DNA of 32,000 nt from Nostoc punctiforme PCC 73102. Its GTDB lineage: Bacteria > Cyanobacteriota > Cyanobacteriia > Cyanobacteriales > Nostocaceae. Shown in pieces: positions 5,557 to 25,125 of this stretch. The DNA is taken from contig NC_010631.1 in NCBI RefSeq assembly GCF_000020025.1, positions 30,001 to 62,000 of the forward strand. The letters run 5' to 3'. The number at the start of each line of letters is the position of its first letter. Positions within the stretch are counted from its first letter, which is position 1. The position numbers and the translations under genes were made by a program. Below the pieces are notes generated by a model, which did no database searches, was not told where the DNA came from, and saw only the letters and a program-made list of their open reading frames with translations.

Positions 5557-6657
5557 TTACGAATTATGAAATATAGCGTGTTGGTAACGAAACAATCCAT
5601 ATACATCAGTGAAACGCAAGCACAAGGCATCTTTTTTAATCGGCAGGTTAAAAGCTAAACGCACATCCTCTGATAATTCTGCTGCCCATGAAATGTCGGT
5701 ATGAGTAAACAAATTTTTCAACTCCGAACCTAAATATTCCGACGTTCCACCACCAATAATGACTTGCTCAATATGGGCAGGAATATTAATTTTGAGCCAA
5801 GTGGATACCTTTTCCCAGTATTCTTTACGAGATAAGTCAGCCACTTCAATAATTTGTGCTATTTCCTCAACCTGAAAATCAGACTTTTTGCTCCGAGCCA
5901 AAGGTTTGCAGTATCTCGGTTTCAATGTCGGGCCTGATAGATGAACAGCCTTTAACAGTTCGTGTAAGTTTTGCCCTGATGTTCGGCTTTTGATTCTCTC
6001 CAGCATCCACGCCAAGCCCAATCCTTCCGTCTTTCCAGTTGAGATACCACGCTCAAAGATTACGGCTGATATATCCCGAAAACCCAGCATCACCACAGCA
6101 ATGTTCATTTTATTGAAATCTGTGCCAAGTTTTTTACTTCGCGTCAATATCAGTCCCCCACCTTCGGGCAAGCACTGAAAGTTAATCAGATTTATACAAA
6201 ATTGTTTCCCTCGAAAGCTAAAGCTAGACAGTGCCTTAGTTAAACCCCTCTCCAATCTCTCTCTATCTTCCCACTCCCCATAAGGCAATAGCAGTCCCAA
6301 GGATAAATCAAAGTTTGCCTTCAAAGAATCTCTAATCGCTATTGCCCCCACTGCTGCCAAAGTTTTTGGAATCGCGTTCTCATACTTGAGTTCTAAAAAA
6401 TTGATTCGCGCTTCAAAATACTTTTGTGCCAAAAACCCAACCGCATAATATTCTTCGTTGTACTCTATCCACGCTTCATTCTCTGGATTGGGCCGATTCA
6501 TTTGCCCAGACTCATATAAATCCAACGAATCTTTGGAAATCTTAATTAACTCTGGTTCCATACACAGCAATTCTGACTTGTACGAAATCTCCGAGAGAAC
6601 ACGATAAACCATCTTCGTCATTGAAGTTCCCGGATCAAGACTCAACATTAAATCCAC
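5557..6657 (-). CDS. actin-like (ParM/Alp-type) plasmid segregation ATPase candidate
   Basis: 366-aa ORF with a GTG start and GGGAGA upstream. Actin-fold signatures read by eye: phosphate-1 LDPGTSMTK near the N-terminus, a degenerate phosphate-2 VVMLGFRDISAVIF, and an adenosine motif VIIGGGTSEYLG. It lies downstream of an iteron block. Confidence 0.55.
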   Translation of the reverse strand: MDLMLSLDPGTSMTKMVYRVLSEISYKSELLCMEPELIKISKDSLDLYESGQMNRPNPENEAWIEYNEEYYAVGFLAQKYFEARINFLELKYENAIPKTLAAVGAIAIRDSLKANFDLSLGLLLPYGEWEDRERLERGLTKALSSFSFRGKQFCINLINFQCLPEGGGLILTRSKKLGTDFNKMNIAVVMLGFRDISAVIFERGISTGKTEGLGLAWMLERIKSRTSGQNLHELLKAVHLSGPTLKPRYCKPLARSKKSDFQVEEIAQIIEVADLSRKEYWEKVSTWLKINIPAHIEQVIIGGGTSEYLGSELKNLFTHTDISWAAELSEDVRLAFNLPIKKDALCLRFTDVYGLFRYQHAIFHNS

Positions 6658-6840
6658 AAGAAAATTTCTCCCTGTTTTTGACCCTTTTTTTGTCTATCTA
6701 ATTGATAATTACTCTCAACTTGAACCGCCCAAACCGTGATTTTTTCCACATTTACGAAGAAATATTACAGTTTTCGCAATACTCTTTGGCTTTTCATAAA
6801 TTCGTGCATCTGATAGAAAATCTCCACAAAATCTCTCAAT

Positions 6841-7060
6841 TCCCAATTTTCACCAATTACATTCAACATCTCCCAATATCTAAACAATATCTCCCAAATC
6901 TCTAATTCATTTCTTACCTTTTCAACTATTCAACATCATTTAGTCACAAAATTCTCATTAGCTTAATATTTTCCAACAATTCCTAAGACTTCCCAAGACT
7001 TCCTAGCACTTCCTGATACTTCCCAATTTCCTCAAGGATTCTCCCAATTATCTAGTAATT
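6841..7060. repeat. iteron block: TCCCAA/ACTTCC motifs, five of them in strict 10-bp tandem phase (parC-like centromere or other protein-binding array)
   Basis: TCCCAA occurs at 6841, 6871, 6892, 6991, 7021 and 7052. Tandem decamers at 6981-7030: tcctaagact tcccaagact tcctagcact tcctgatact tcccaatttc. The array lies in the divergent intergenic region between the ParM-like gene and the relaxase. Confidence 0.55.
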
Positions 7061-7270
7061 AGCTTCAAGAACCACAACCCCTGTAATCCATCTTTTTCTG
7101 ACGCACAGTACGCCATATTTGGCGGAAAGAATGCTCGACTTTTTGCTATATTAAATGACAGGAGAGTTGGGGAAATAAAATTTTGTTTTGGTCAAAGTCT
7201 CACGAAAAAAAAATCATTCGTCATCAAGCACCACGAAGTTTGATAACGGGGATTGATTTTGACCTCAATA

Positions 7271-7301
7271 CTTATTGCAAAGGTGATTATCTTGCAATAA
7301 G
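7271..7301 (+). promoter_or_regulatory. perfect 10-bp inverted repeat, candidate oriT hairpin
   Basis: CTTATTGCAA (7271-7280), an 11-nt loop, then TTGCAATAAG (7292-7301), about 100 bp upstream of the relaxase start codon. The nic site is not identified. Confidence 0.3.
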
Positions 7302-7397: not shown

Positions 7398-10300
7398 ATG
7401 CTGACAGCTGCTAACGTTTCTTCAGAGATGGCGGTGAACTACTTCGTCAAAAACTACTACCACCAAGGGAAGTCGCTTTGGAGTGGTCAAGGTGCTTTAA
7501 AATTGGGTTTGTCAGGGGCAATCGATGATGAAGAAGCTTTTAAAAATGTGATCTCAGGGCGTTCACCCCAGGGTCGTGAGCAATTAAATGCCAGGGCCTT
7601 GAAGCCCGACGAACGCAGAGCCGCATTAGACTGTACATTTTCTGCGCCCAAAAGTGTAAGCTTGATGGCCTTGGTGGGCGGGGATACTCGTTTGATTGAT
7701 GCTCACCATCAGGCGCTAAAAGAAACTCTGGAGCTAATAGAGCAGCGTTATGCCTATACCAGAGTGACAGATAATAGCGGCAGACATAGAGTTAAGACTG
7801 GTAACTTGGTCGTCGCGCAGTTCGATCACATCGAAAGTCGGGATTTAGACCCACATCTGCACACCCATTGTTTGCTGATGAACATGACCCAAACTCCAGA
7901 TGGTAGGTGGTTAAGTTTGGGTAATAACGAGATATTCGCCAATAAGAAATTCTTGGGGATGGCATACCAAAGCTCTCTGGCGCGTGAGGTGCAGAAGCTT
8001 GGCTACGAGATAGAAAAGAGCAAACATGGGCAATTTGATATAAAGGGCTTTAAATTCGAGGATTTAGAGGCATTTTCTAAACGCCGACAGCAAATCATCG
8101 CCTCATTTAGTGCTAATTCGACTTGGGCAGAACGTGAGAAAATCTGGGATAATACTCGCCAGCGCAAGCAAAAACTACCAGAATCAGAGTTACTTGCATT
8201 CTGGAAAGAAGAAGCTGCGGCATTAGGGATTAGGTTTGTTAAGGCAGGTGAACCAAGGCAGGAGATACCAGCCAATGAGAAAAGTTTGGCAGAGGTTTTG
8301 GATTTAGCGATCGCACATTGCAGTGAGAGAAATGTCGCTTTTAGACAAGAGGATTTAGAAAAATTCATCCTAGAAGAACGTTTAGCTACGGATATAGCAG
8401 CAACAGCAGCCCTGATTAGAGAGCATCAGGAGTTAATCGCTTTACCAGGATTGACTGACCAATTTACGACGATGACAGCAGTGCGACGGGAACTGGCAAC
8501 GATTGACTTAATGCAGCAGGGTCAATATAAATTTTGCTCCATTTCCCAAAGAGAAGTAGTCGAAAGCCACTTAGAGAACACCTTACTAAATACCGGACAG
8601 CGCCAAGCAGTAGAATTAGCTGCAACAACATCTGACCAGTTCATTGCATGGCAGGGGGTAGCTGGCGCTGGCAAGACTTTTGCCCTCAAAGAGTTGAAGG
8701 CGATCGCTTTTAATGCCGGATATACCATCAAAGGCTTTGCCCCCAGTTCCTCTGCTGCTAAGGTTTTGAGCGAAGAGTTAGAAATTCAGTCTGAAACTAT
8801 TGCTAGATTACTTGTGACTGAACCAAAAGAAATTGAACCAAATCAAATCTGGGTTGTGGATGAAGCGGGTTTACTCAGTGCAAAAGATGCTCATGCACTT
8901 TTACAAAGAGCAACCTTACTTCAAGCTAGGGTAATTTTAGTTGGTGACACTCGGCAGTTGTCAGCAGTAGAAGCCGGTAATCCCTTCAAATCGTTGCAAC
9001 AGGCAGGAATTAAAACCGCACACCTCAATGAATCGTTGCGTCAGAAAAACCCGCAGCTAAAATTAGCAGTAAATTTGATTGCTGATGGCAGGATTGAAGC
9101 AGGATTTGAACGACTAGAAGCCAACGGTTCCATACTTCAAGTAGATAGTTTTTCCAAAATAGAGCAGATCGCCAATGATTATATAGTAGGGACACCAGAG
9201 CAACGACTCAAAACTCTTGTGTTAGCTGGAACAAATACAGAAAGACTTGCCCTTACCCAAGCGATTCGAGACAAGCTCAAGGGTGAAGGGACTTTGGGAG
9301 AAACTGCAACCATCACCCAATTGCAAACCAAAAATCTGACAAAAGTACAGATGCGGTTTGCCCATAACTTTGAAATTGGTGATGTGATCATGCCCACACG
9401 GGATTACAAACGCCGGGGGCTTTCTAAAGGCAAATTATATGAAGTGGTAGGTCGAACTACTGACAAGTTGACACTAAGAAGTGATGATGGACAGCATTTA
9501 GAAGTAGATACAGCATTTGACAAGGCAGTTTACCAGAGGCACCAGATTGAAATTGCTGTGGGCGATCGCTTGCAATGGAAGAAAAACGATCGGCAATTGG
9601 GACGACGCAACGGGCAAGAATTTACTGTGACAGGAATCGACCTGAACATAGTCCACATTAAATATGCTGATGAGCGTACTGAACGCATTAGTTTGGCACA
9701 GACGCAAAACTTAGACTATGCCCTTGTGAGTACAACATATAGTAGTCAGGGGAAAACTGCGGATCAGGTGTTAATTTCGGCAGATTTCACTATTGGACAG
9801 GAAAGTTTTTATGTTGCTGCCAGCCGTGCAAGGCATGAATTAAAAATTTACACCGAAGATCCAACGCGATTGGTAGAGTTAGCGCAACAGTCGAAAGCCA
9901 AAGATAATGCTTTGGAATTGCTACGAAAACAAATTCAGAAATCGACGATTGAGCAGCACCAAGCAATAACTATAAATATAAGTGCCCCTTTTGAGAAGCC
10001 AGTACTAAAACAAGAGACGACAGTATCTACTCCAAATGTCCAGCCAATTGTGAAATCAGTCGCATCTAGCCGGACAACAAGCCATGATTCATCAATAAAA
10101 GTACCGAAAGTCTTGCCCGTCTTGAAAGAGATACCAAACTATAATACTGTTGAATCGGTTTTCTCCAAGCCAGTACTGAAATCTGCTGCCCCAACAGAAG
10201 CATTTTGGACACCACATCAAAGTAAAGACATTCCCAATTTTCTTGAACCAAAGCACTGGCAAGAGTTTGAAGATAGCGCTATCCATCCTGATATTGCGGC

Positions 10301-13300
10301 AAAAAATTTTGAAAGTCTTCAATTCAACTATGCAGGTGGTGAGCATGAGTCTTGGGAAAGACTCATGGTTAGTGAAAAACTTAATCGTACAAATACCGGG
10401 AGGTTAACGGAGGGATTAATCAGAACATATTCTCATCTTGATGCTGGAGGATGGTGGTGTGATGCTGGAGTTGATCCGCGAACATTTGCTGATTTAACCC
10501 CAGGTGATAAACCAACTCTTAAACGATGGGGATGCTACAAGCCAAATCAACCAAGACCCAAAAAAGATGAGAATAATCAAATAATTGAAGGGAAATTCAT
10601 CAAATATGAGCATCCTCCCAAGGTTGAATTAAGCATTTTCCTGCTTAATGTCCCTGACGATATTGCCGAACGCATTTACTCCAAACACAAGGCGAATCCC
10701 AGTGATAGCGATCGCCAGTCAGGATTTTGGTATTGTGTATGGAAACATAATATCCCCTGTGCAATCGCAGAAGGAGCTAAAAAAGCAGCCAGTCTGTTGA
10801 GTCAGGGTCATGCTGCCATTGGGCTACCTGGGATTTCGGCGGGATACCGAACTCCCAAAGATGAGTTTGGCAAGAAAATTGGCAAGTCTTACCTGCATGA
10901 AGAGTTAGCAATTTTTGCCACACCTTCTCGAGAAATCAAATTCTGCTTTGACTATGAAACCAAGCCTAAAACGAAGCTCAATATTGAGAGGGATATTTCC
11001 GTAACTGGAAGATTGTTGCAGAAGCTTGGAGCTAGGGTCAAGGTCGTCAGCTTGCCAGGGCCTTCTAAAGGTGTTGACGATTTCATAGTCGCAAGTGGGC
11101 CACTGGCTTACGAAAAATTGAGCCATGAAGCAATGAAGTTAAGGGACTGGCAACAGCACAATCAACACTCAAAAGTTGCTGCAATAGAACCACCCAAACT
11201 TCAGCTTAAAGAAAGTTCTTTACAACAAACCTCACCAAATCAACCAATAGGACAAACCCATGACAACCAACAACAACCCAACCCAGATACAGTTATTAAC
11301 CGAGAAGATAGAGGAATTATTAACCTCTCACGGGAAACTGAACAAGAATTTCGAGCAGTTAGAAATCAAGAACTCTCAACTCACCGAAAAAATTCAGAGC
11401 TTAGAGGTAGCCCAGCAACAGAGGTTGAGCGACTTCTTACAGCAGTTAGCCGAGACATTGAATGCCAAGAAGTCCTCGAACTTAGAGCCATTAGTACAAG
11501 AATTAACCCAAGCTCTACAGATGATTGGCTTCGAGGTCAACGAGCAACGAACTTCTCAAGACAAGTTAACCCAGAAGATTCAGCAATTATTGACGGCGCA
11601 GCAAGTGATGTCAGTTTTGAACAAAATGGAAACGCCAAACGACCAACTACCGAACAACTCTTAAACGCAATTACTGAGAATATTCAACAGTCAATAGTTG
11701 ATGATGCCTTGGTTGAAACGTTACCACAATTAACAGAACAACTGTACGGGTATCAGCAGCACCTAAGAAGAGCTAGAACCAGATTAGATGACTTTGGAGC
11801 AGTGATTGCTTCAATTGAGCAACAAATTTCATCAAAAAGAACAGTGGATGTAATCTCTGACTTTATTGAACAGTCAGTAGTTGAGTCCACCCTAATAACT
11901 TTGTTGCCACAATTGGTAGAGCAACTCTCTCAAGTCAGTCAGCAATTAGCTCACAAAACAGCTATTGCTCAACAGTCAGAACTTTCAAGTTCACAAAAAA
12001 CTGTTTGGGCAATTGCTGAAAATATTGAATACTTGGCTGTCTCCTCTGCCCTCACTGAAGCTTTACCACTGTTAATAAAACAACTCTCTCCCTTGAGACA
12101 GCAGCAAAAAGGAGTCAGAAGTAGATTTGACGATTTAGAAGCAGTCATTACTCAAATTGAGCAACGACTTTCATCACAAAGAGCTATAGACGCAATTACT
12201 CAAAATGTTGAATACTCGGCTGTCTCCTCTGCCCTCACTGGAACATTACCGCAACTAATAAAACAATTTTCTCCTTTGAGACAGCAGCTAAAAAAAGGTA
12301 TTGCCACATTCGACAAAATATTTACAGCAATTGAGCCATTATCACAACGCCTTGATTTACAAAAAACTATCGATATAATTGCTGAGGATATTGAACAGTT
12401 GGCTGTAGAGTCTGCTTTAAGTGAAACGTTACCACAACTAATAGAGCAACTCTCTCAACATCACCAGCATATCTCAGGAAGGATAACTAAATTCGACGAC
12501 CTAGAAACAGCAATTTCTCAATCTGAGCAGCACCTTTCAACAAAAAAAACTGTCTTATCAGTTCTTGAAAACATAGAACAGTCATTAGTTGAGTCTGCCC
12601 TAGCTGAAACTTTGCCACGGTTAATAGAACAACTTTCTAAAACTTGCCAACAGCAAAAAGCTCTTAAACCCGCATTTGATAAAATATCTACAAGAATTGA
12701 GCATGAAATACAATATCTTTCTTCACAAAGGACTGTAGACGCAATTGCTCAAAATATAGAACAGTCATTAGTTGAATCCATTATTACTGAAACGTTACCA
12801 CAACTAATAGAACAACTTTCTAAAACTTGCCAGCAGCATAAGGGAAGAACCACCTTTGAGGGCTTAGGAGTAGCTATTACTCAAATTGAACAACGGCTTG
12901 ATTCACAAAAAACTGTAGATCCAATTATTGAAAATATCGAATACTCGGCTGTTGAGTCTGCCCTCATTGAAACTTTACCACAATTAATAGAACAACTCTC
13001 TCAATATCACCAGCAGCTAAAAGGAGGAAAAACTAGATTCCACGGCTTAGAAGCAGCTATTACTCAAATTGAACAACGACTTGATTCACAAAGAACTATC
13101 TTATCAATTGCTCAAAGTATAGAACAGTCATTAGTTGAGTCCATCATTACTGAAACCTTACCACAACTAATAAAACAACTTTCTCAATTCAGCCAGCAGC
13201 TAAAAGTAGGAAAAACCACATTCAACCAGTTTCAGCAACTACTGGATAATGAATTCGTAGGGTATTTGACCCAAAAAACTCGAACTTCAGAACACTTAGC

Positions 13301-13826
13301 TCTTAATGCTATTTCTGACTACGTTGCTCAAGAAACTGTTGCAAGTTATGAGACTGTATCAGCGCTCTCAAAACTGAAAGAATTGCTAGGGGTGAGCCAA
13401 TCTCAAACTTATACCGAATTTACTACTGCTTTACAAAAGATACTTGACTTGACTGAAAAATGGGGACATCATCAAAATCATTCTCAAGGAAACGTTCAAT
13501 CCCTCTCAATAGAAGTAGAAACTGAGTTATTAAAAGAGTCAGTTAAATCACACATTAAACAAATAATTCACGGTTTAGATATTGAAAGATTGGCTGCTTT
13601 AGTTATGGAAGTAGGAAAATATGTCAAAGGTGAAAAGGTAACAGGAGCAAAGGTCAGCGAGTTATTTACGAGTGTTACAACTGATGCCAAAGCTTTGACT
13701 TTTGAGCAAAAAATGAACATTGTTAGGCAACTCATTAAAGATGACAAACCATCGATTATGAAAAGATTGGGAATCAACTCGCCATCGCCAAATGACAACG
13801 AGGAGCATCTACGGTTCCGGCGCTAA
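7398..13826 (+). CDS. MOBF (TrwC/TraI-type) relaxase - SF1 (RecD-like) helicase - Toprim-like domain - tandem-repeat C-terminal region
   Basis: 2142-aa ORF with GAGGTGAG 4 nt before the ATG. Relaxase motifs: AVNYFVKNYYHQG..WSGQGALKLGLSG, DCTFSAPKSVS, FDHIESRDLDPHLHTHCLLMN. Helicase motifs: GVAGAGKT, VVDEAGLL, LVGDTRQLSAVEAGNPF, TYSSQGKTAD, YVAASRAR. Toprim-like: CAIAEGAKKAASLLSQGHAAIGLPG (about 10760-10840) and GVDDFIV (about 11070-11090). Confidence 0.92.
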   Translation: MLTAANVSSEMAVNYFVKNYYHQGKSLWSGQGALKLGLSGAIDDEEAFKNVISGRSPQGREQLNARALKPDERRAALDCTFSAPKSVSLMALVGGDTRLIDAHHQALKETLELIEQRYAYTRVTDNSGRHRVKTGNLVVAQFDHIESRDLDPHLHTHCLLMNMTQTPDGRWLSLGNNEIFANKKFLGMAYQSSLAREVQKLGYEIEKSKHGQFDIKGFKFEDLEAFSKRRQQIIASFSANSTWAEREKIWDNTRQRKQKLPESELLAFWKEEAAALGIRFVKAGEPRQEIPANEKSLAEVLDLAIAHCSERNVAFRQEDLEKFILEERLATDIAATAALIREHQELIALPGLTDQFTTMTAVRRELATIDLMQQGQYKFCSISQREVVESHLENTLLNTGQRQAVELAATTSDQFIAWQGVAGAGKTFALKELKAIAFNAGYTIKGFAPSSSAAKVLSEELEIQSETIARLLVTEPKEIEPNQIWVVDEAGLLSAKDAHALLQRATLLQARVILVGDTRQLSAVEAGNPFKSLQQAGIKTAHLNESLRQKNPQLKLAVNLIADGRIEAGFERLEANGSILQVDSFSKIEQIANDYIVGTPEQRLKTLVLAGTNTERLALTQAIRDKLKGEGTLGETATITQLQTKNLTKVQMRFAHNFEIGDVIMPTRDYKRRGLSKGKLYEVVGRTTDKLTLRSDDGQHLEVDTAFDKAVYQRHQIEIAVGDRLQWKKNDRQLGRRNGQEFTVTGIDLNIVHIKYADERTERISLAQTQNLDYALVSTTYSSQGKTADQVLISADFTIGQESFYVAASRARHELKIYTEDPTRLVELAQQSKAKDNALELLRKQIQKSTIEQHQAITINISAPFEKPVLKQETTVSTPNVQPIVKSVASSRTTSHDSSIKVPKVLPVLKEIPNYNTVESVFSKPVLKSAAPTEAFWTPHQSKDIPNFLEPKHWQEFEDSAIHPDIAAKNFESLQFNYAGGEHESWERLMVSEKLNRTNTGRLTEGLIRTYSHLDAGGWWCDAGVDPRTFADLTPGDKPTLKRWGCYKPNQPRPKKDENNQIIEGKFIKYEHPPKVELSIFLLNVPDDIAERIYSKHKANPSDSDRQSGFWYCVWKHNIPCAIAEGAKKAASLLSQGHAAIGLPGISAGYRTPKDEFGKKIGKSYLHEELAIFATPSREIKFCFDYETKPKTKLNIERDISVTGRLLQKLGARVKVVSLPGPSKGVDDFIVASGPLAYEKLSHEAMKLRDWQQHNQHSKVAAIEPPKLQLKESSLQQTSPNQPIGQTHDNQQQPNPDTVINREDRGIINLSRETEQEFRAVRNQELSTHRKNSELRGSPATEVERLLTAVSRDIECQEVLELRAISTRINPSSTDDWLRGQRATNFSRQVNPEDSAIIDGAASDVSFEQNGNAKRPTTEQLLNAITENIQQSIVDDALVETLPQLTEQLYGYQQHLRRARTRLDDFGAVIASIEQQISSKRTVDVISDFIEQSVVESTLITLLPQLVEQLSQVSQQLAHKTAIAQQSELSSSQKTVWAIAENIEYLAVSSALTEALPLLIKQLSPLRQQQKGVRSRFDDLEAVITQIEQRLSSQRAIDAITQNVEYSAVSSALTGTLPQLIKQFSPLRQQLKKGIATFDKIFTAIEPLSQRLDLQKTIDIIAEDIEQLAVESALSETLPQLIEQLSQHHQHISGRITKFDDLETAISQSEQHLSTKKTVLSVLENIEQSLVESALAETLPRLIEQLSKTCQQQKALKPAFDKISTRIEHEIQYLSSQRTVDAIAQNIEQSLVESIITETLPQLIEQLSKTCQQHKGRTTFEGLGVAITQIEQRLDSQKTVDPIIENIEYSAVESALIETLPQLIEQLSQYHQQLKGGKTRFHGLEAAITQIEQRLDSQRTILSIAQSIEQSLVESIITETLPQLIKQLSQFSQQLKVGKTTFNQFQQLLDNEFVGYLTQKTRTSEHLALNAISDYVAQETVASYETVSALSKLKELLGVSQSQTYTEFTTALQKILDLTEKWGHHQNHSQGNVQSLSIEVETELLKESVKSHIKQIIHGLDIERLAALVMEVGKYVKGEKVTGAKVSELFTSVTTDAKALTFEQKMNIVRQLIKDDKPSIMKRLGINSPSPNDNEEHLRFRR
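11650..13330 (+). repeat. about 9-10 in-frame tandem repeats of ~183 bp (61 aa) inside the relaxase gene
   Basis: The block ..ENIEQSLVES(A/I)..ETLPQLIEQLSQ..QQLK...F..LE.AITQIEQRL.SQ(R/K)T.. recurs, with the IE(Q/Y)S core at about 11683, 11865, 12024, 12207, 12393, 12573, 12756, 12936 and 13119. Spacing is 159-186 bp, mostly 180-183. A degenerate copy lies near 13310. Confidence 0.85.
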
Positions 13827-13827
13827 C

Positions 13828-13855: not shown

Positions 13856-13873
13856 ATATTTCCATCAATTCAT

Positions 13874-16845: not shown

Positions 16846-18609
16846 TTAAATCAGACTCGCATATTCTGATAATTGCTCTTGATTTTCTATCAAAGGTAAC
16901 AATTTTACCGCGGAGGCTCGGCGAATTTTCATTTCTTCATCTGCTGGAGTTAAGAGAGTAGAGTTTTTAGATAATAACTTTTGAAACTCGTACCAAGCTT
17001 TCACACTGTCAGCTTCAGATTGGATTTCATGCTGAGGAATCTTAATTGATTGCAAAATTGGCAAACTTATTTGACCACGAGAACGAAATCCGGGACTAAT
17101 AATTACTGCTTTTCCTGATGGTAAAGTGTTAAATTGATTGACATCAAATAACTTGCGAGTACTGTTTTGGTCAGAATTAGAAATGCTTGCACCGCCCTTG
17201 CCTCCTGATGAACGAGAACGTTGCTTGTATTTAATTTCTTCTTCACCTAAAAACTTACTAAATCGTTCGGCGGCTACATCATCTTGGGGATTAAAGAATG
17301 CTTTGGTCGCACAACCACCAAATATTGCATTAGTTGTGTTTTCACCATAAGATTCAATCAGCATTGAGAGATTTTGTAAACCTAAGATAGAAATTAGTCC
17401 ATCCTCGCGGTTCTGATTGAGCCAATCAACCAGTGCTGGTAAATATAATGTGGGTAATTCATCAATCCCCAACACCAAAGGACAAGTACGTTTGTTAGCC
17501 ACATTCCGGCTAACTAATAGATGCAGAATCGAGACAAGCAAAGGGGCAATTACATCACGCTTCTCTTTGTTCATCCCGAAAATCACCATCTGCCGTTCCT
17601 TCAAATCCAGTGGAATATTAGTTTTTCCACAGAATGCTGCTAATGCCGAGGGAACCATGAAGCGGCTGAACAATCCGCTAGCTGTACCCACAATACTAGC
17701 TGCTGTTTCTGGCGACCCTGCAACAGATACAAACTGTGCGAAAGCCTCTCTAACCATGAAATTCAGATTTTCTGCTTGCTCTATGCGCTTAACTAACTTT
17801 GGCAACCCTAGTATCGCTTGGCACATCATGATATCTGGATAATCTGTGCCCTTTGCCAGCATAAAGACGGCTTGGACTAACTGATCGCCAGCGTTGGTAA
17901 AGAAGCTATTTCCAGAATCTTGATCACCGAGTTGGAAATTGCGATTGAGTGTAATCGCAAGCTGCCGTGCCATTTCTGAGTCTTCATTACTGCGAAGAAA
18001 GTCGATAGGGTTGGCAACTGCTGATTCTGCAAAGCCTGGGGCAAGCACAGTAACCTGATAACCGCGTTCTATCGCATACCCTGCAAGTATTGGAGCTTGC
18101 CCTTTAGATGGAGAATCAGCTGATTCCTGGGAGGCGTATTTGAAATCATATAAAGCCAGAGGTAAGCCCTGATCAATTACAGAGCGAATCAGGGGATTAA
18201 TCATTGAAAATGACTTTCCACTCCCTGGGCCACCACAAACTAGGATGCCTCGCTGTGCCTCTGGAAAATAAAGGGTTGTTGAATCTTCAGGGATGCAAGT
18301 TCTACGGACACCATTAATAACCTCGCTCGTTGTATTCTTGGGAGTTCCTACATACAGTGATACCCGGTTATGCAAGCGTTGCTGAATTTGTTTACACGCC
18401 AACTGACGAGCCGCTGTTTTCTCTCTTGTCCCGCCCCAGCGCGCTGTCGCTAGCTTGGCAATACCTCCCCTACTATCGATGATTTTGGCGATTACAATCA
18501 CTGCGCCACAAGCAAGTACCCCTAAACCTGCGGGGGAAAACAGCGCTGATTCAAGTCCTGCGGGAATAAATTGATTTGCCTTAACCTCTGTCTTAGGAGT
18601 CCCTGTCAT
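16846..18609 (-). CDS. type IV secretion coupling protein (VirD4/TraG family)
   Basis: 587-aa ORF with N-terminal hydrophobic segments. Walker A: VCGGPGSGKS. Walker B and the TraG C-terminal block: LVLGIDELPTLYLPALVDWLNQNREDGLISILGLQNLSMLIESYGEN..FFNPQD. Its ATG overlaps the upstream stop (ATGA). Confidence 0.9.
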   Translation of the reverse strand: MTGTPKTEVKANQFIPAGLESALFSPAGLGVLACGAVIVIAKIIDSRGGIAKLATARWGGTREKTAARQLACKQIQQRLHNRVSLYVGTPKNTTSEVINGVRRTCIPEDSTTLYFPEAQRGILVCGGPGSGKSFSMINPLIRSVIDQGLPLALYDFKYASQESADSPSKGQAPILAGYAIERGYQVTVLAPGFAESAVANPIDFLRSNEDSEMARQLAITLNRNFQLGDQDSGNSFFTNAGDQLVQAVFMLAKGTDYPDIMMCQAILGLPKLVKRIEQAENLNFMVREAFAQFVSVAGSPETAASIVGTASGLFSRFMVPSALAAFCGKTNIPLDLKERQMVIFGMNKEKRDVIAPLLVSILHLLVSRNVANKRTCPLVLGIDELPTLYLPALVDWLNQNREDGLISILGLQNLSMLIESYGENTTNAIFGGCATKAFFNPQDDVAAERFSKFLGEEEIKYKQRSRSSGGKGGASISNSDQNSTRKLFDVNQFNTLPSGKAVIISPGFRSRGQISLPILQSIKIPQHEIQSEADSVKAWYEFQKLLSKNSTLLTPADEEMKIRRASAVKLLPLIENQEQLSEYASLI

Positions 18610-19799
18610 CGTCCCGTCCCCACGATAACCAAATCATTCTCACTCACGGGCAACCAGGGAACTGGCCCAATGAAGTAAGGGGTGCAAGTTTTCTGCTGAA
18701 ATGGCGGTCGCGCACAGATCCTAAAGAATAAGCCAAAGTCGGCAGTCCCAAGGGATTCATTAACTCCAGTTAGCGCCACTTTGAACCCACTACCATACAC
18801 TAGCCGCCCCGTGGGTTCCTTGCCCCCATTCACGGCGGCTAGAATTCCATAACCACCCTTGACTTGCTGAGATGAACCAGATGCCCAACGCTTACCATAC
18901 AAGCCTCTCTGGGAACCAGCAAAATCCCCCATTTCTAAGTATGAGCATTCAATGCCTGGAGGACAGGCTACTGTCACAGTGCGATCGCCTCTCACGACAC
19001 TGCCAGACACAAAGTAGTCATTTCCAGCCTTGGTATCACCTCTTTCAGAAGTACCAAGTACCACAGAAGCAATACCCACAACACCAAGTCCAGAGTTGAT
19101 CGGCTTGGGCATTTTATCAAAGGCTACTTGGTTTAATCCCGGCACTTGGTTGATATAACTTTGTTGCCATGATTGAAAGGATTTTAAAGGCGTATCTTGG
19201 AGTCCAGGTATGGAATTCAAAGAATATTTGCTCAGGTCGATCTCACCTAATTTGAGATTAGCAGCTTGGGGATTATAGGCTACAATCTCAGAAATTGTCC
19301 CACTAGTAGCAACTCCAGATTTACTAAATAACTCTTCAAGGGGTGGGACTTGATTAACGGAGAGATTACCTAATTCTGGAATAGCTTTAACTAAAGATTT
19401 AGGAGTTTGCCATTGCATTAATCCAAAATCTAGTAGCGTCAGGTTTGATGATTGGGCTGCGATTGTACTTATGGACTTCAGGCTAAGACTGGACGTTTTG
19501 AATGCATCATCTACATCCCCCAGCATCACAATAGAGTCAACCTTTTGTCCTGCCGACCATGACCGGGAAGGGTCATAACCAAAGGTAGAAATTAGATTTT
19601 GAGGGATTTTTAAATATCCTGGCTGTTGAACTGGTGGCAAAGTATCCCATGTAATCTTTGACCAGTCGGGAGTTTGGGCTGAATATTTCCCCTGAGAATG
19701 AGTAATCGTTGGTGTCTGTGCAACTGAGATTGAAAGCGGAATTACCGAAGCGAAGGCAGTCAGTAGAAAGAGTTTAAATTTCATCAAAGTTGCCCCCAT
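18606..19799 (-). CDS. secreted hypothetical T4SS-operon protein; start may be ATG 19784 (MKFKLFLL..)
   Basis: 397-aa ORF with a signal-peptide-like MKFKLFLLTAFASVIPLSISVAQ. ATG 19784-19782 overlaps the upstream TGA by one base (TGATG). No family recognised. Confidence 0.7.
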   Translation of the reverse strand: MGATLMKFKLFLLTAFASVIPLSISVAQTPTITHSQGKYSAQTPDWSKITWDTLPPVQQPGYLKIPQNLISTFGYDPSRSWSAGQKVDSIVMLGDVDDAFKTSSLSLKSISTIAAQSSNLTLLDFGLMQWQTPKSLVKAIPELGNLSVNQVPPLEELFSKSGVATSGTISEIVAYNPQAANLKLGEIDLSKYSLNSIPGLQDTPLKSFQSWQQSYINQVPGLNQVAFDKMPKPINSGLGVVGIASVVLGTSERGDTKAGNDYFVSGSVVRGDRTVTVACPPGIECSYLEMGDFAGSQRGLYGKRWASGSSQQVKGGYGILAAVNGGKEPTGRLVYGSGFKVALTGVNESLGTADFGLFFRICARPPFQQKTCTPYFIGPVPWLPVSENDLVIVGTGR

Positions 19800-20614
19800 T
19801 TAAGTAATTGGTAAAAAGTGGTTTTATCGACCTGAGAAAGCGAAATCGCCTCTTCTCTAGTCTTGCCACGCCGTAATAATTTAATTGCATCTTGTACCTT
19901 GCTCCAGGTGGTAGAACCAGGTTTAACTTTATTTTTCCGCCCTGCCTCTGCTAGCCCAAAAGCGAGGGCATTCGCATCATTCCTTTGAATCGCCCCGTTT
20001 AGCGTAGTTCCAGGATTGGGGCGTAAAACGGCAACAGGCTGAGGCAGAGGGACTTTTATTGTTTGTGGTGGCGGCGAGGGCTGGTGGACTACTGGCGGCG
20101 CTGATTGCGGTTTTTCAACTGTTAGAGGAAGTGGCGTTCGCGGACGGGTAATGGGCAATGGGCGATCCGAATCAGATTTAACTACCAAGCTTGTATAGGC
20201 TGGGTTGCCTGTGGCGGGAACTATCTTAAACTGATATTGCTTTTGGCTGGTAAGTAGTGTAATTTGAGTGCTACCATCGCCGCTTGTGGACACAGGAAAA
20301 TCGATTGGGTCAATCTGGCGAAGAAAGATTACGGTCGCTTTACCTCCCGCGCATTCAGAATCGCCGCCTGATGACGGGCATAAACCACCGTTTGAGGTAA
20401 AAGCAAAGCGACTTGGATCGCCAATCCAAACTTGCTTGATAGTTTCCCCAGTAGACATTAAATTAATAGTTAGTCCATAGCCTTTCCATACTTTTAATTC
20501 GATAGAGCTAGAGTTTGCATCATTCTCGTAAACCGTTCGAGCAGGTATCGCCGTTGCTTTTGCCGCGCTAGTTAAGATTAAAAATGCTGCAATAATAGTG
20601 GTTTTATTTAACAT
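19784..20614 (-). CDS. VirB9/TrbG-like periplasmic T4SS component candidate with atypical C-terminal HTH-like tail
   Basis: 276-aa ORF with a signal peptide (MLNKTTIIAAFLILTSAAKATA). Its beta-rich domain ends in TQITLLTSQKQYQFKIVPA, resembling the VirB9-family pattern tNL.v.T..r.Y.F.L. A Pro-rich linker follows. The tail reads GKTREEAISLSQVDKTTFYQLLKWG. Confidence 0.45.
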   Translation of the reverse strand: MLNKTTIIAAFLILTSAAKATAIPARTVYENDANSSSIELKVWKGYGLTINLMSTGETIKQVWIGDPSRFAFTSNGGLCPSSGGDSECAGGKATVIFLRQIDPIDFPVSTSGDGSTQITLLTSQKQYQFKIVPATGNPAYTSLVVKSDSDRPLPITRPRTPLPLTVEKPQSAPPVVHQPSPPPQTIKVPLPQPVAVLRPNPGTTLNGAIQRNDANALAFGLAEAGRKNKVKPGSTTWSKVQDAIKLLRRGKTREEAISLSQVDKTTFYQLLKWGQL

Positions 20615-20644
20615 TTTTCCATGTTTACCGTAACGTTATTGTGA

Positions 20645-22111
20645 TTAGAGCGATATTGTTTGATTAACGAATATTTGCACTGGCTTACCAACATCGATTA
20701 CAAATACTTCTTCTCTACCGCTTAACTGTTGAGAACGGGCGACATTTGAACTTTTGATATTATCGAGAATGCTATTAAATGCACCCTCTCCAAAAGCGGC
20801 GGATAAATCTTTTTGCTCGTTGGTAGTGGAGCTAGTAGAGAAGCCATTAGAGTTCGTACTAACTTGAGTTACAGGGCGATTCTGTACCTGGGCAGCCTTC
20901 GCAACTCCCGCGATGATCGCAGAAATGAAATTGTTACCCAGATTGCTACCTTTGCGAGACTCTGCTTTTAAGAAACCACCATCCTTGGCCATTATCAAAA
21001 CAGCATTTGGTGGTAGCGGTTTCTCTTGGGTATCGCCATTGGAGTTCACCAATACTGAAACGCCGCGCAGTTTGGCAAGACCAGAGCCATTGGACTCTGC
21101 TAATTGAACAACTAGATAAGCGCCTACGGGCAATACGTCGCTACCATCTGAGGCTTTTAATGCTTTTGATACCTTCACTAAGTAATTCTGGTTGCCAGCG
21201 TCACCAGTGCCCCAGGCTAAAGGTGTTTCTAATCTGCCCTCTGCGGTGCTGCCAACGAGTACGCGTTTTGCGTTGTAATCAGTGCTAGTGCTTTCGACAA
21301 CCTGCATAGCTCCTCCCGCCCCTCCTTCAATTCCAGTAACTTTTGGTTCCTTGACTTCCGAATCATCGCCTGAACTACTAAAACTGCCAGCATTCGCAGC
21401 GAGAAGCCATTGCTGAGTGGGATCTAACTTTGCGATGTTCGCTTGGGGGAACGCCAAAGGAGATTGTCTAACTGGCTGGGCAATTTTTGGCTGTGGCTGT
21501 GGCTGTGGTTGCTCCCTCCTAGCAGTAGGAAAAGTCTTGGGTACTGTCGGCGCTCTATCGACTGGGTAAGGCTGTTGTCTGCGCTGCACTGGTTGTATAT
21601 TCGGGGTAACGGGTGCAATTGGAGCAGGGATTGCGTTATTTGTAGGCGTTGTTACTGGGTTTGGCTTTTGATCACGAATCTGCCTTAGCTGGTTATTTTG
21701 GCTAGTCAGGGCAAGCGCTGTTTTATCTTTGCCCGTCTCATTTTCCGGCTCTGGTAGGGGCGTTTGCTCGTTGCCTTTGGGCGTTTGCACAATGCCCTTG
21801 GAAAACTTCAGCACATTCATTGAATTACCGATTAAAGCCCCAATGATTATTACAAAGAGAGAGCAAATTAGAGCAACAACGCCCATTTTTAAGAGTGGAG
21901 ATTGCGAGACTGTTCGAGTGGTAACGATTTCCTCTGGTGCGGGGTTCTGTTCTGGTTGAATTGAATCATTAATCGAAGAGATTTTAGCCCCGTTCATGGC
22001 GGCAAAATCTTGCGACTCTATCTCAATAGTTGCTGACGGTAAGGGTTCCTGATTTTGGATTTCTTCTATCTCAATAGTTGCCGACGGTAAGGGTTCCTGA
22101 TTTTGGATCAT
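20645..22111 (-). CDS. VirB10/TrbI-like T4SS component
   Basis: 488-aa ORF. Order of parts: cytoplasmic N-terminus, one TM helix (VVALICSLFVIIIGALIG), a Pro-rich region (QPQPQPQPK, PAPIAPVTP), then a beta-rich C-terminus ending VFVIDVGKPVQIFVNQTISL. This is typical VirB10/TrbI architecture. Confidence 0.6.
   Translation of the reverse strand: MIQNQEPLPSATIEIEEIQNQEPLPSATIEIESQDFAAMNGAKISSINDSIQPEQNPAPEEIVTTRTVSQSPLLKMGVVALICSLFVIIIGALIGNSMNVLKFSKGIVQTPKGNEQTPLPEPENETGKDKTALALTSQNNQLRQIRDQKPNPVTTPTNNAIPAPIAPVTPNIQPVQRRQQPYPVDRAPTVPKTFPTARREQPQPQPQPKIAQPVRQSPLAFPQANIAKLDPTQQWLLAANAGSFSSSGDDSEVKEPKVTGIEGGAGGAMQVVESTSTDYNAKRVLVGSTAEGRLETPLAWGTGDAGNQNYLVKVSKALKASDGSDVLPVGAYLVVQLAESNGSGLAKLRGVSVLVNSNGDTQEKPLPPNAVLIMAKDGGFLKAESRKGSNLGNNFISAIIAGVAKAAQVQNRPVTQVSTNSNGFSTSSTTNEQKDLSAAFGEGAFNSILDNIKSSNVARSQQLSGREEVFVIDVGKPVQIFVNQTISL
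22013..22108 (-). repeat. 48-bp tandem duplication at the 5' end of the VirB10-like gene
   Basis: Encodes IQNQEPLPSATIEIEE / IQNQEPLPSATIEIES. The two nucleotide copies (22061-22108 and 22013-22060) are identical apart from the first 5 nt and one C/T difference. Confidence 0.85.
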
Positions 22112-22827
22112 AGGTCTAAATCTTGGATTTTATAAATTTCCAGCCCAGCTTTACGAACGCGAGAAGCGGTTTCTTGAACCTGGGATGCAAATCTAGGAAT
22201 GGCAGCCGTATCAATCGCCCTGACAAATACAGTTTTGTTAAAAGCGATGGGCTTACCAACTAAATTGCTGCCTTGGAAAACAACAATCTCTGCAACCATA
22301 TCTACTTTCCATTGCCCATCCTTAATCCGAGTCGGCTGACTGATTAAGCTGACTTTTAGGATTGATTGCGTAGACCCATTAAAGACATCGGGCGGCGTAA
22401 GATTACTTATCTCCTCAAGGAATGGTGCGCGAAAATCTTCTGACAACGCAAAACCTGAAGCCCATACACTAGTAGTAATCTTGGCTTTTGATGTCGATAC
22501 ACCAGCGTCTAACTTTAATTGTTTGGTGGGGTCTGGATTGTAATCATCGCTTGACTTTGGTAGAGCATTCCAACTTAAAAGTCCGGTCATTGTCTGCCCG
22601 ACAAAACGTGTAATAGCTTGGGGGGAGCGCTCCTCACTGCCTATAGGAAGAACTCTGATAGATTCGCCGTCATGTAACTCCACAAGGGTGGAAGCTTTCG
22701 TTTTAGAAATTGTTGCTATCCGAGCAAAATTGACAATTTCTATGAATAATAAGAGCGTTAATAAAATAGCATTGACTATTAAGAAAATTGGGGTAAAGTT
22801 TAACTCTTTTCTCTCTAATAATTTCAT
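22108..22827 (-). CDS. VirB8-like bitopic T4SS component candidate
   Basis: 239-aa ORF with a short N-terminus, one TM helix (FTPIFLIVNAILLTLLLFIEIV) and a ~190-aa periplasmic domain. It lies between the VirB6-like and VirB10-like genes with 4-nt overlaps on both sides. The call rests on topology and position. Confidence 0.4.
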   Translation of the reverse strand: MKLLERKELNFTPIFLIVNAILLTLLLFIEIVNFARIATISKTKASTLVELHDGESIRVLPIGSEERSPQAITRFVGQTMTGLLSWNALPKSSDDYNPDPTKQLKLDAGVSTSKAKITTSVWASGFALSEDFRAPFLEEISNLTPPDVFNGSTQSILKVSLISQPTRIKDGQWKVDMVAEIVVFQGSNLVGKPIAFNKTVFVRAIDTAAIPRFASQVQETASRVRKAGLEIYKIQDLDL

Positions 22828-23882
22828 CTTCTTAAACCCACAGAGAATTTAACCCCACTGGTAAACGCTGAGAATACAGCCATTCCGCCACCAGTGCCTA
22901 TGGCTACCGCGAGTAATGGCGAAAAGATGGCTTGTAAAAGTTGCAATAATAAAGGATTGCTAGAAGGCTTGGAGACTATTGCGCTGGCAATAATGCCTAC
23001 TGTTATGGAGTAGGAAATGAGAACTAATGTTAGTCCTAACCAGCCAGCCAACCAAGCATAGATAGGTTTGCTTTGGAAAGGCAGTAAAGATAAAACCAGG
23101 AAGATTGGGGCGGCGAATGCAATCATTAAGAATGACAGTTGGACGATGTACTGAAAAGCTGCCGATACCCCACTGAGAATGACATAAACAAAACCTTGGA
23201 TTGCGCTATTAATTAGTTCACCAGTAAGGTCTAAGGGGTTCCAACTTCCGACTCCAGAACCTGCACCAGTCTTTTCTCTAGCTTTCTGCGCGTCTTTTCG
23301 TGTATTCTCCACAGCCTGTTTGATACAAGCTTGTTTCTCGCTCAATTCTTCACCTTCCTTCTTTTCGTTGTTGAGCTTTTCGCACTTAGCTAAGGCTATC
23401 TGTGCGGCTAAGACAAAGCTTTGGTCAGCGTTTACATTCCGTATAGCATCTCTCAAATTGACCCCATTTCTCGTAATATTTAAAATACTCCTGTTTAGTC
23501 CGGTCGATACGTTTTTTAATGCGACTGTTGTGTTTGCTAGGAGGAACCCATTATTACTAAGCATTACGATTACTACTAATGGCAAAACCATCTCGGCTAT
23601 GAAATCAAAACCAAACCCTTCTTCTGCATACTTCCTGTACCAGCCAAATGATGCAAAGCCAATCATCACAACAGCCGCGAGGGTAGAAACAGCGACGACA
23701 GCCGTATAAATTGGGCTTGTTCCAGATGCTAATTCTAGCCAATCATTCTCAAACGATTTATAGATTAGGTCTGCGCCTGAGATAGCCCCTTCGACTATTT
23801 CGCCTGAATTCGTAGTGCCCGTATCTTCTCCAGCTTTTTGCCCTGTCGTTTGGGCAAAAAGAATAACTAAGAACGTTATCAT
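22824..23882 (-). CDS. VirB6/TrbL-like polytopic membrane T4SS component candidate
   Basis: 352-aa ORF with at least 5 hydrophobic helices and a central charged loop (EKKEGEELSEKQACIKQAVENTRKDAQKAREK). The call rests on topology and position. Confidence 0.5.
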   Translation of the reverse strand: MITFLVILFAQTTGQKAGEDTGTTNSGEIVEGAISGADLIYKSFENDWLELASGTSPIYTAVVAVSTLAAVVMIGFASFGWYRKYAEEGFGFDFIAEMVLPLVVIVMLSNNGFLLANTTVALKNVSTGLNRSILNITRNGVNLRDAIRNVNADQSFVLAAQIALAKCEKLNNEKKEGEELSEKQACIKQAVENTRKDAQKAREKTGAGSGVGSWNPLDLTGELINSAIQGFVYVILSGVSAAFQYIVQLSFLMIAFAAPIFLVLSLLPFQSKPIYAWLAGWLGLTLVLISYSITVGIIASAIVSKPSSNPLLLQLLQAIFSPLLAVAIGTGGGMAVFSAFTSGVKFSVGLRR

Positions 23883-23912
23883 TTGAGTTATCGTAACGTT
23901 ATTGTGACTCGA

Positions 23913-24641: not shown

Positions 24642-25125
24642 GATACAAGTCCTCCAGGGCTACTACAAAAGGTTTTTTGGTACAAAGAGATTTTACGGTT
24701 GCTTGCTTTTTTACTAAATCAAAGGAAACAGCTTGAACCATTAATGTTTTAGGTGATTCTTCCTTATTTAATAAACTGGTGAAGAAGGGATCATCGAAAG
24801 GTAAAGCATTAGGTGGAAGGGTGGAAGCAGGGGATCGAAAAAGCATGACATAAGCACCTGGGTCAGCAGATTCAGAGTTAATCCCCGGTTGCTCTAATCC
24901 ACTCAATCGCTTATTTTGATATTTCAATGCTCTCAGGCTGGGGGAGCGCTTGATGGCATCCTCGCCCAATTCTATGTACACGCCACAGCCATTCTTCGCT
25001 TCGCTAATAAGCTTTTCATATTGAGCTTGATTATATTGCCAAACCTGAAAGCTGACTATTGACGCAACACCCGCGAGTATTGCCAGTAATAACTTATTTT
25101 GAATAGCTAATGAAAGAATCTTCAT
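24583..25125 (-). CDS. hypothetical bitopic membrane protein of the T4SS operon
   Basis: 180-aa ORF with an N-terminal TM helix (LLLAILAGVASIVSF). It overlaps VirB4 by 4 nt and the downstream ORF by 59 nt. Confidence 0.55.
   Translation of the reverse strand: MKILSLAIQNKLLLAILAGVASIVSFQVWQYNQAQYEKLISEAKNGCGVYIELGEDAIKRSPSLRALKYQNKRLSGLEQPGINSESADPGAYVMLFRSPASTLPPNALPFDDPFFTSLLNKEESPKTLMVQAVSFDLVKKQATVKSLCTKKPFVVALEDLYLEYQPIDRDLRRSDFDILF

Follow-up and report, generated by a model that had tools for sequence, protein, structure and literature searches.

We analysed a stretch of 32,000 nucleotides from Nostoc punctiforme PCC 73102 (contig NC_010631.1 of assembly GCF_000020025.1, positions 30,001 to 62,000 of the forward strand), referred to below as the window, with the focus on mobF, a gene whose single product joins a relaxase of the MOBF class, an SF1B helicase and a module that, according to its predicted fold, corresponds to the catalytic core of the DnaG primase. 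The gene lies within a conjugation locus, and its product is probably a conjugative relaxase with a built-in primase. The features of the locus are listed in Table 1, with all coordinates given as positions of the window and all residue numbers as those of the mobF protein.

Table 1. Features of the mobF locus and the basis of each assignment (aa, amino acids; ORF, open reading frame; TRF, tandem repeat search; AF2, AlphaFold).
Feature	Position	Strand	Description	Basis
mobF	7398..13826	+	single intact ORF, 2142 aa: relaxase, helicase, primase module, repeats, tail	ORF list
TrwC-type HUH relaxase domain	7398..8267 (aa 1-290)	+		Pfam TrwC, NCBIfam MobF
RecD/TraI-like SF1B helicase	8535..9932 (aa 380-845)	+		AAA_30, TraI_hel_assoc_N, weak UvrD_C_2, TIGR02760
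Low-complexity linker	9933..10232 (aa 846-945)	+	rich in S/T/P/V/K	composition
DnaG-type primase catalytic core (predicted)	10233..11153 (aa 946-1252)	+	complete	homologue boundary, AF2 model, Foldseek
Toprim part of the primase module	10725..11102 (aa 1110-1235)	+	equals the Pfam DUF3854 match	PF12965
Poorly conserved linker	11154..11621 (aa 1253-1408)	+	rich in Q/S/E/N	composition; 70% identity to p057_K or unaligned, flanks >92%
Nine tandem ~61-aa repeats	11622..13241 (aa 1409-1948)	+		repeat alignment; TRF period 183 nt
Small C-terminal helical domain	13542..13787 (aa ~2049-2130)	+	kept in Nostoc orthologues	pLDDT 82-87
Candidate nic region of the origin of transfer (oriT)	7255..7301	-	perfect 10-bp hairpin 7271-7280 / 7292-7301, then TATTGAGG on the minus strand	
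Iteron-like direct repeats	6827..7024	.	between parM-like gene and mobF; CAAyATCTCCCAA x3; AAGACTTCCY x4 at 10-bp period	TRF
ParM/ALP-like partition ATPase gene	5557..6657	-	divergent from mobF	Pfam ALP_N, E 8.5e-5
Mrr_cat restriction endonuclease gene	13874-14737	-	convergent with mobF	Pfam, E 3.5e-22
Gene for 418-aa protein	14935-16191	-	between endonuclease and coupling-protein genes	weak apolipoprotein/SF-assemblin-like (coiled-coil) Pfam matches
VirD4/TraG-type type IV coupling protein (T4CP) gene	16846..18609	-	convergent with mobF	Pfam TraG-D_C 5.5e-23, TrwB_AAD_bind 3e-22, T4SS-DNA_transf 6e-15
Type IV secretion system (T4SS; mating-pair formation) operon	18606..28665	-	VirB4-like ATPase 25122-27860; weak VirB9-/VirB10-like proteins	Pfam

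The mobF gene and the relaxase-helicase part of its product

The mobF frame opens with an ATG, with AGAGGTGA just 5' of it. An earlier note on this DNA, made from the letters alone, had placed the start correctly and let the frame end at 11200, short of the true stop at 13826; 940 further residues, among them the nine repeats of 61 aa, were left out. Its description of a three-part protein, composed of a TrwC/MOBF relaxase, a RecD-like helicase and a Toprim/DUF3854 primase-like module, was borne out by Pfam, and all the peptide strings that it had quoted were found, well above chance; AEGAKKA lies at aa 1124-1130, KGVDDF at aa 1224-1229, GGWWC at aa 1017-1021 and WGCYKP at aa 1044-1049. The orthologues of mobF are annotated as single coding sequences in the plasmids pNPM1 (2008 aa) and p057_K (2192 aa). 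In some Nostoc plasmids (H5, H22 and H31) the region carries several separate annotations, for a relaxase-domain protein, an AAA ATPase and a DUF3854 protein, as would be expected if the long frame were an artefact in which neighbouring genes had been joined by a sequencing error or a recent frameshift. However, single intact ORFs that keep this domain order are present in six or more plasmids, drawn from three families of cyanobacteria, the same architecture recurs in about 15 independent clusters formed at 50% identity, and the fragmented copies resemble pseudogenes, so that an artefact is effectively refuted.

The N-terminal 290 residues were matched by the Pfam profile TrwC at aa 13-275 (E 1.2e-87, 294.6 bits against a cutoff of 25) and by the NCBIfam profile MobF (NF041492) at aa 1-277 (E 1e-91, 307.6 bits against a cutoff of 100). 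The histidine triad read in the earlier note is in place (H144/H155/H157 within HIESRDLDPHLHTH, aa 144-157), whereas the proposed YY..YY arrangement of the tyrosines is not: the sequence reads Y15-F16...Y20-Y21 (NYFVKNYY), with F16 in the position of the second tyrosine of the first pair. The SF1 helicase that follows was matched by AAA_30 at aa 397-583 (Pfam, E 6.3e-57) as well as by TraI_hel_assoc_N, and its Walker A motif is GVAGAGKT (aa 420-427); the match of UvrD_C_2 is weak (aa 774-815, 17 bits, under the cutoff). The TraI model TIGR02760 aligns over aa 10-842, with the equivalog cutoffs for full-length TraI missed, as expected of a distant member. The relaxase profile, the catalytic Tyr/His motifs and the fused SF1B helicase together place the protein in the MOBF class.

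The primase module and the tail behind it

The third part of the protein is a conserved unit of about 307 residues (aa 946-1252), and its boundary is shared by more than 100 homologues. In stand-alone homologues the module occupies the extreme N-terminus, with nothing homologous upstream of aa ~946. The homologues retrieved with aa 900-1290 were cyanobacterial DUF3854 proteins, several of them named "CyRepA1 family plasmid replication protein". The profile scan by which the earlier note had proposed to check its domain assignment returned DUF3854 (PF12965) at aa 1110-1235, E 2.9e-47, with 160.3 bits against a cutoff of 23 and with profile positions 1-128 of 130 covered; since the conserved unit spans aa 946-1252, this profile describes merely the last third of the module.

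The structure prediction likewise proposed there gave a confident model with a DnaG-type fold. The AlphaFold model of the module, built on an alignment of 53 sequences, had a mean pLDDT of 95.9 and a pTM of 0.92, and Foldseek found nine significant matches to it in the PDB (E 2e-5 to 5e-4), every one of them a DnaG RNA-polymerase domain (B. subtilis 5guj, S. aureus 4e2k/4edg, P. aeruginosa 5vaz, E. coli 3b39/1eqn). Eight matches span the full length (about 320 columns, TM 0.46-0.51), and 5vaz chain A gave a partial one (241 columns, TM 0.32); the other Toprim proteins RecR and Twinkle gave partial matches of about 110-140 columns that were not significant (E>0.03). Because all significant matches are DnaG RNA-polymerase domains and nearly all of them are full-length, the module is, as modelled, a whole DnaG-type catalytic core, composed of the N-terminal subdomain, the Toprim fold and the helical subdomain. 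The W/C-rich stretch that the earlier note had seen ahead of the Toprim region does exist (GGWW, aa 1017-1020) and is part of this N-terminal subdomain rather than an element of its own.

The residues expected of a DnaG active site are strongly conserved. E1125, D1185 and D1227 are invariant in all 53 homologues and D1228 in 50 of the 53, position 1187 is D in 39 and E in 14 (E in the window), and K1069-Y1070-E1071 of the KYEHP motif is again invariant among the 53. Further invariant or near-invariant positions of this alignment are K1048, P1073, W1111, E1125-G-x-K-K and G1225. An hhalign alignment, chosen for its collinearity with the structural match, was used to map residues onto E. coli DnaG; it served solely for this purpose and not as evidence of homology. 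In this mapping E1125 corresponds to E265, D1185/E1187 to D309/D311 and D1227 to D347, the GVDD sequence (1227-1228) forms the third acidic motif, equivalent to D345/D347, and K1069-Y1070 falls on K229-Y230 of the PKYLNSPET motif. Thus the conserved Toprim glutamate had been identified correctly (E1125), whereas the DxD motif had been sought in GVDDFIV and its position is in fact FD1185-Y-E1187. Furthermore, every catalytic motif is kept in the six relaxase-fused orthologues that were aligned, including that of Acaryochloris at 33% identity.

Several results weigh against the module being a primase of the DnaG type. Sequence identity to bacterial DnaG is 10-14% and the hhalign probability against E. 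coli DnaG does not exceed 5%; a profile search of the PDB with the module gave marginal DnaG matches (E 0.03-0.12), and the module as a single sequence retrieved nothing relevant from the PDB. The DnaG assignment rests on the predicted fold, for which a TM of ~0.5 and a root-mean-square deviation of ~6 A indicate a common topology and not a close match. In addition, DnaG and T7 primases read their template through a zinc-binding domain, and Pfam gave no match to zf-CHC2 or any other zinc finger at E<=1; the linker upstream of the module is without a Cys/His cluster. A zinc site built from the conserved cysteines of GGWWC/WGC (C1021 and C1046) was considered and rejected, as these are not kept in Acaryochloris and no zinc-finger profile was matched. 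As to the other DnaG domains, neither DnaB_bind nor DnaG_C (Pfam) was matched, and the module is followed by the low-complexity linker and the repeats. A PHROGs scan of the module and the tail yielded nothing useful.

The missing zinc-binding domain would also suit a module that is not a primase, that is, a non-catalytic domain for single-stranded DNA binding or protein docking, or one with a nuclease- or topoisomerase-like Toprim activity in the processing of the transferred strand (T-strand). Toprim folds occur in nucleases, RecR and topoisomerases as well, according to a paper citing Aravind 1998, and the function of DUF3854 is called unknown in the study describing CyRepA (PMC10079941). 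We nevertheless regard such a role as improbable: the structural match covers the whole three-subdomain DnaG core and not the Toprim fold alone, and the invariance of the DnaG metal-binding acids together with the KY motif of the N-terminal subdomain would be unexpected for a purely structural role.

The repeats and the tail behind the module are a Nostoc-specific appendage of variable copy number, with nine copies of the repeat in the window, eight in pNPM1 and eleven in p057_K, while Aulosira, Tolypothrix and Acaryochloris lack the repeat altogether; the tail is kept in pNPM1 and p057_K. An AlphaFold prediction of the C-terminal 743 residues was all-helical with a pLDDT of 44 and with no confident fold except for the last ~90 aa, and the Pfam match of DUF6918 on the repeats stayed below the threshold per domain. 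The segment 11173-13557 (aa ~1260-2053) is the only one that fails to align within the 27 kb of backbone common to the window and p057_K, its flanks being 85-96% identical. The tract of linker and repeats is thus a hotspot of variation within an essential transfer gene. That the repeats and the tail serve as a spacer or as a platform for binding a partner is a guess.

Two lineages of the module and the question of replication

A profile of the module alone matched 7,590 clusters (50% identity) at E<=1e-3 among 1.84 billion representatives. Most of the top matches are proteins of 1000-1200 aa in which the module is N-terminal and a helicase follows, the architecture of CyRepA, and about 15 clusters have relaxase and/or helicase sequence upstream of the module, as mobF does. 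Among plasmids, the module was found in 200 records, for which the organisms listed are all cyanobacteria. According to their annotation these comprise MobF genes in Nostoc, Tolypothrix, Aulosira, Acaryochloris and a Synechococcus, CyRepA1 genes (including those of pSYSA and pAQ1) and solo "DUF3854" genes. The homologue search and the literature (PMC10079941) thereby agree with the earlier note, which had mentioned modules of this type in CyRepA plasmid replication proteins.

When 94 modules were placed in a bootstrapped neighbour-joining tree, those fused to MobF and those of solo proteins lacking a CyRepA helicase formed one clade in 100 out of 100 replicates, apart from the helicase-bearing Rep-type modules, and a probe for the CyRepA helicase found no match in any of the 16 relaxase-fused proteins. 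Judged by sequence, the module occurs in cyanobacterial plasmids in two lineages, one apparently devoted to replication (CyRepA1/2, with a helicase of their own) and the other to conjugation (fused to MobF, or solo after the T4CP gene). The solo proteins examined on plasmids share with the mobF protein the module alone, at 68-69% identity. Three solo proteins with modules 56-69% identical were checked, on plasmid A of T. variabilis, pC052_A of Nostoc C052 and pANSO36A of N. commune, the identity being consistent with membership in the clade, and all three are encoded directly after a T4SS operon and a T4CP gene. Their plasmids (L006, L007 and L008) are typed MOBV or non-mobilizable, and on them the solo protein (~875-1195 aa) comes after the T4CP gene and a further one or two small ORFs. 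One of these small ORFs encodes a protein of 163 aa whose annotation gives a relaxase/mobilization nuclease domain; on plasmid A of T. variabilis ATCC 29413 (L006) the coordinates are 10763-11254 and 11302-14886. The N- and C-terminal regions of the solo proteins are unrelated to anything in the window.

The fusion of relaxase and primase module apparently arose more than once. A protein of 1813 aa (P0229) has TrwC, AAA_30 and DUF3854, and its module groups with the Rep-type modules; because it stands outside the clade of MobF-fused and solo modules, it suggests a second, independent fusion. Another protein (P0166, 871 aa) has the relaxase at aa 17-275 and the primase module at aa 440-740, and no helicase could be detected in the interval. 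As a separate observation, the helicase half of CyRepA1-type proteins (e.g. P0024 and P0065) weakly matched the herpesvirus UL9 origin-binding protein and RIG-I SF2 helicases (E 0.014-0.04), which hints that CyRepA joins a primase resembling DnaG to an origin-binding helicase resembling UL9.

The earlier note had also supposed that the mobF protein might double as a replication initiator. It would then act, also or instead, in vegetative replication, in a rolling-circle or CyRepA-like manner, with oriT doubling as the vegetative origin (oriV) and with a helicase and a lagging-strand primase of its own. The primase module is indeed about 40% identical to the N-terminal module of CyRepA1/2, proteins that carry the DUF3854 module and support autonomous replication (PMC10079941). 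Moreover, HUH relaxases are kin to rolling-circle initiators, and a nickase, a helicase and a primase would formally be enough to start both strands. Within the 32-kb window no Rep gene is recognisable, iteron-like repeats lie upstream of mobF, and the orthologue in Aulosira resides on a 46-kb plasmid typed only "mobilizable". However, p057_K, which shares 27 kb of backbone with the window, has a separate gene of the CyRepA1 family (1223 aa), and since this close relative has the same mobF locus, an initiator role of the relaxase is unnecessary. A candidate for an alternative Rep is likewise present on the Aulosira laxa plasmid5 (46 kb), which encodes a MobF-primase fusion and no annotated T4SS: a primase-helicase-like protein of 1080 aa with D5_N and DUF5906 (L002 9053-12295) that is a likely replication protein. 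The fused modules fall in the clade described above, apart from the Rep-type modules, solo members of that clade sit in T4SS operons, and the mobF protein had no match to NCBIfam CyRepA1 at E<=1. The host plasmids, at 46-540 kb, are implausibly large for rolling-circle replication, and the upstream iterons lie next to the parM-like gene, which diverges from mobF, and could serve that gene as a centromere. In view of the separate Rep candidates in two relatives, the distinct clade and the lack of both a CyRepA helicase and a CyRepA1 profile match, we consider the initiator role unlikely. We would also give little credence to a wider version, in which the protein is a self-sufficient establishment machine that pilots the T-strand into the recipient, unwinds or tracks it there, primes it without a zinc finger, with the primase positioned by the relaxase-bound oriT hairpin or the repeat tail, and also initiates replication (oriT = oriV) in plasmids without CyRepA. 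If true, this would be the first nickase-helicase-primase replisome starter common to conjugation and replication.

Conjugative setting and the proposed role in priming

The window DNA matched 33 Nostoc plasmids; in the best match, about 90% identical, the gene is annotated solely as "MobF family relaxase". With p057_K of Nostoc C057 the window is collinear over 27 kb at 85-96% identity; p057_K and pNPM1 are both typed "conjugative, MOBF", and their conjugative loci are collinear with the T4SS operon of the window. The gene order parM, mobF, T4CP is seen again in pNPM1 and in pREB3 of Acaryochloris, where the divergent upstream gene is an unannotated hypothetical, and Tolypothrix has the order parM-mobF. 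In pNPM1, p057_K and Tolypothrix, the orthologue of the ParM/ALP-like gene bears the annotation ParM/StbA. The position of the Mrr-type gene, between mobF and the genes proximal to the T4CP gene, is kept in pNPM1 and p057_K, which also have the 418-aa protein, as a "hypothetical protein". Two bases past the mobF stop begins a tandem repeat of the heptamer TTATCAG (4.6 copies, 13828-13859), which ends before the Mrr-type gene. At the other end of the locus, collinearity with p057_K stops at ~30966 (window 30437-30988 against p057_K 68566-69095), within the gene for a RecD-like helicase of 769 aa in p057_K, where the ORF of the window has 183 aa, so that the gene may have been truncated here or recombination may have left a breakpoint.

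The intergenic region upstream of mobF (740 bp) is rich in repeats, with a skew of C over G of -0.39 in the iteron region. About 127 nt upstream of mobF lies the hairpin of the candidate oriT. At the nic site of R388 a hairpin, GCGCACCGAAAGGTGCG, is followed by TATTGTCT/ATAG (PMC4176350), and the layout of the candidate is alike, with the hairpin directly before a TATTG-type motif. The hairpin and the nic motif are kept in pNPM1 and p057_K, and in Aulosira a hairpin with TATTGT is located on the same strand ~157 nt upstream of mobF. In Tolypothrix and Acaryochloris, two of the four more distant relatives that were examined, the hairpin with the TATTG motif was not found, and because of this the oriT call at 7255-7301 stays tentative. 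A comparison with pNPM1 for phylogenetic footprints in the upstream region was uninformative, as the two are 95% identical and hence too close. The iterons may be a parC-like centromere and/or accessory sites of the relaxosome. The Tolypothrix intergenic region holds similar TTGGGAGATRTTG units.

We propose that the mobF protein is a conjugative relaxase with a cis-acting, built-in primase, a nickase, a 5'-3' helicase and a DnaG-type core in one polypeptide, and put the probability of this reading at roughly 0.6. The relaxase would nick oriT, probably within the 740-bp upstream region, remain bound covalently to the T-strand at its 5' end and leave the donor through the adjacent T4CP and T4SS. 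For the relaxases TrwC and TraI, covalent linkage to the T-strand is established, and for TrwC, Cre or Cas fusions to the C-terminus have served as translocation reporters (PMC11513951). In the recipient, the tethered primase would lay RNA primers on the incoming single strand, from which a host polymerase would build the complement, and the relaxase would then recircularise the DNA. The analysis shows the domains, the predicted fold, the conserved catalytic residues, the conjugative setting and the separate lineage of the module; the primase activity, the position of oriT, the export and the priming in the recipient are inferred, the last two from the covalent linkage of relaxases to the T-strand. 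The module forms part of the relaxase gene itself and has the T4CP and T4SS genes for neighbours, which accords with a primase encoded among transfer functions. The parallel to the separately transferred primases Sog and TraC, drawn in the earlier note, has emerged as the best-supported mechanism, given the full DnaG core of the model and a module lineage that is tied to conjugation loci even where it is unfused.

Besides the points concerning the fold, the zinc site and oriT, three considerations count on the other side. Cyanobacterial conjugation is essentially unstudied (Guglielmini 2014); a protein of 2142 aa would have to unfold for passage through the T4SS; and a replication role of the module is possible in principle, because the homologous module of CyRepA serves vegetative replication. 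The length of the protein, with its long repeat tail, might impede translocation and so favour a module that acts in the donor, for example in priming the retained strand or the fork during transfer, and is not exported in active form. Donor as well as recipient priming has been raised by the authors who described the Rickettsia bellii TraA_Ti (PMC4564193). On the other hand, the known conjugative primases Sog and TraC work in the recipient (PMC5512222). In the canonical model of F and R388 transfer, the 3'-OH at nic primes replacement synthesis in the donor, for which no primase is needed, and linkage to the T-strand would bring a fused module into the recipient by default if the protein is exported like TrwC and TraI. 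Action confined to the donor therefore seems to us a poor prospect.

In a relaxase with a cis-acting primase, the primase would be tethered to the pilot protein, and the module would for that reason be the cis-linked counterpart of Sog/TraC as well as of the MobA/RepB' fusion of RSF1010 and the TraA_Ti fusions of Rickettsia. In MobA-RepB' of RSF1010 (IncQ), as in mobF, a relaxase is covalently joined to a primase, so that the pilot protein carries the priming activity, but the relaxase is of the MOBQ type and there is no helicase domain. RepB' is not known to be of the Toprim/DnaG type, and it has a second role in vegetative replication, at ssiA/ssiB. TraA_Ti of R. bellii (RAGE) has the three-part design of mobF in one polypeptide, with an HUH relaxase at the N-terminus, then an SF1 helicase and, towards the C-terminus, a Toprim primase of the DnaG type, and T4SS genes are encoded alongside. 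It differs in the relaxase (MobA/L, MOBQ-type, versus TrwC/MOBF), in a generic Toprim/DnaG domain in place of the cyanobacterial DUF3854 family, in the lack of a 61-aa repeat tail and in the phylum of the host. Its authors described a MobA/L relaxase with helicase and Toprim primase and deemed the primase domain unique to rickettsial relaxases (PMC4564193), a claim that needs extending, since the cyanobacterial mobF has one too. TraC1 of RP4 and SogL/Sog of ColIb-P9/R64 are Toprim primases exported through the T4SS that prime the complementary strand in the recipient (PMC5512222). They resemble the present module in being of the Toprim/DnaG type and encoded with plasmid transfer functions, and the cyanobacterial solo proteins next to T4CP genes match this manner; they differ in being separate polypeptides of other Toprim subfamilies. 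In the mobF protein, neither Toprim_2 nor Toprim_3 nor Toprim_4 of Pfam had a match at E<=1. Sog, TraC and RepB' each have an internal in-frame start from which a free primase is made.

With CyRepA1 (Slr7037, pSYSA) and CyRepA2 (pCC5.2) the mobF protein shares the DnaG-like module of ~300 aa containing DUF3854; the identity is ~36-46%, and the invariant residues coincide. In CyRepA, however, the module is N-terminal, a DEXDc SF2-like helicase follows and a relaxase is lacking, whereas in mobF it is internal and followed by repeats. R388 TrwC and F TraI match the N-terminal 845 aa of mobF in the TrwC fold family, the His triad, the tyrosines and the SF1B helicase, and their genes lie beside oriT and the T4CP gene, but they have no primase; mobF has ~1300 residues after the helicase, and its first tyrosine pair is Y-F and not Y-Y. 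Finally, bacterial DnaG has the metal-binding acids and, as far as the model goes, the fold of the RNA-polymerase domain in common with the mobF module, and differs by its zinc-binding and DnaB-binding domains, lacking in the module, which sits within a relaxase. A literature search, conducted largely without subscription journals, found no account of a DUF3854 or DnaG-type module joined to a TrwC/MOBF relaxase, so that an earlier mention is possible.

Plasmids vary in how second-strand synthesis is achieved in the recipient, by transferred primases, by single-strand promoters or by host priming. A large group of cyanobacterial MOBF plasmids, in Nostoc, Tolypothrix, Aulosira and Acaryochloris, builds what is predicted to be a DnaG-type core into the pilot protein itself. 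No paradigm is overturned by this, and the genes are already in the databases as MobF relaxases; the relaxase-primase design is known in other plasmid groups, and what is new here is the combination of a MOBF relaxase with a DUF3854-type DnaG core, in cyanobacteria. Moreover, DUF3854 with the ~170 residues preceding it could be re-annotated as a DnaG-type RNA-polymerase domain, and the replication proteins CyRepA1/2 of cyanobacterial vectors would then be primase-helicases, the replication and conjugation lineages of the module now being told apart. Cyanobacterial conjugation (of the mating-pair formation type MPF_C) is experimentally almost unexplored, and the putative cis-acting primase together with the oriT candidate may provide handles on native transfer systems.

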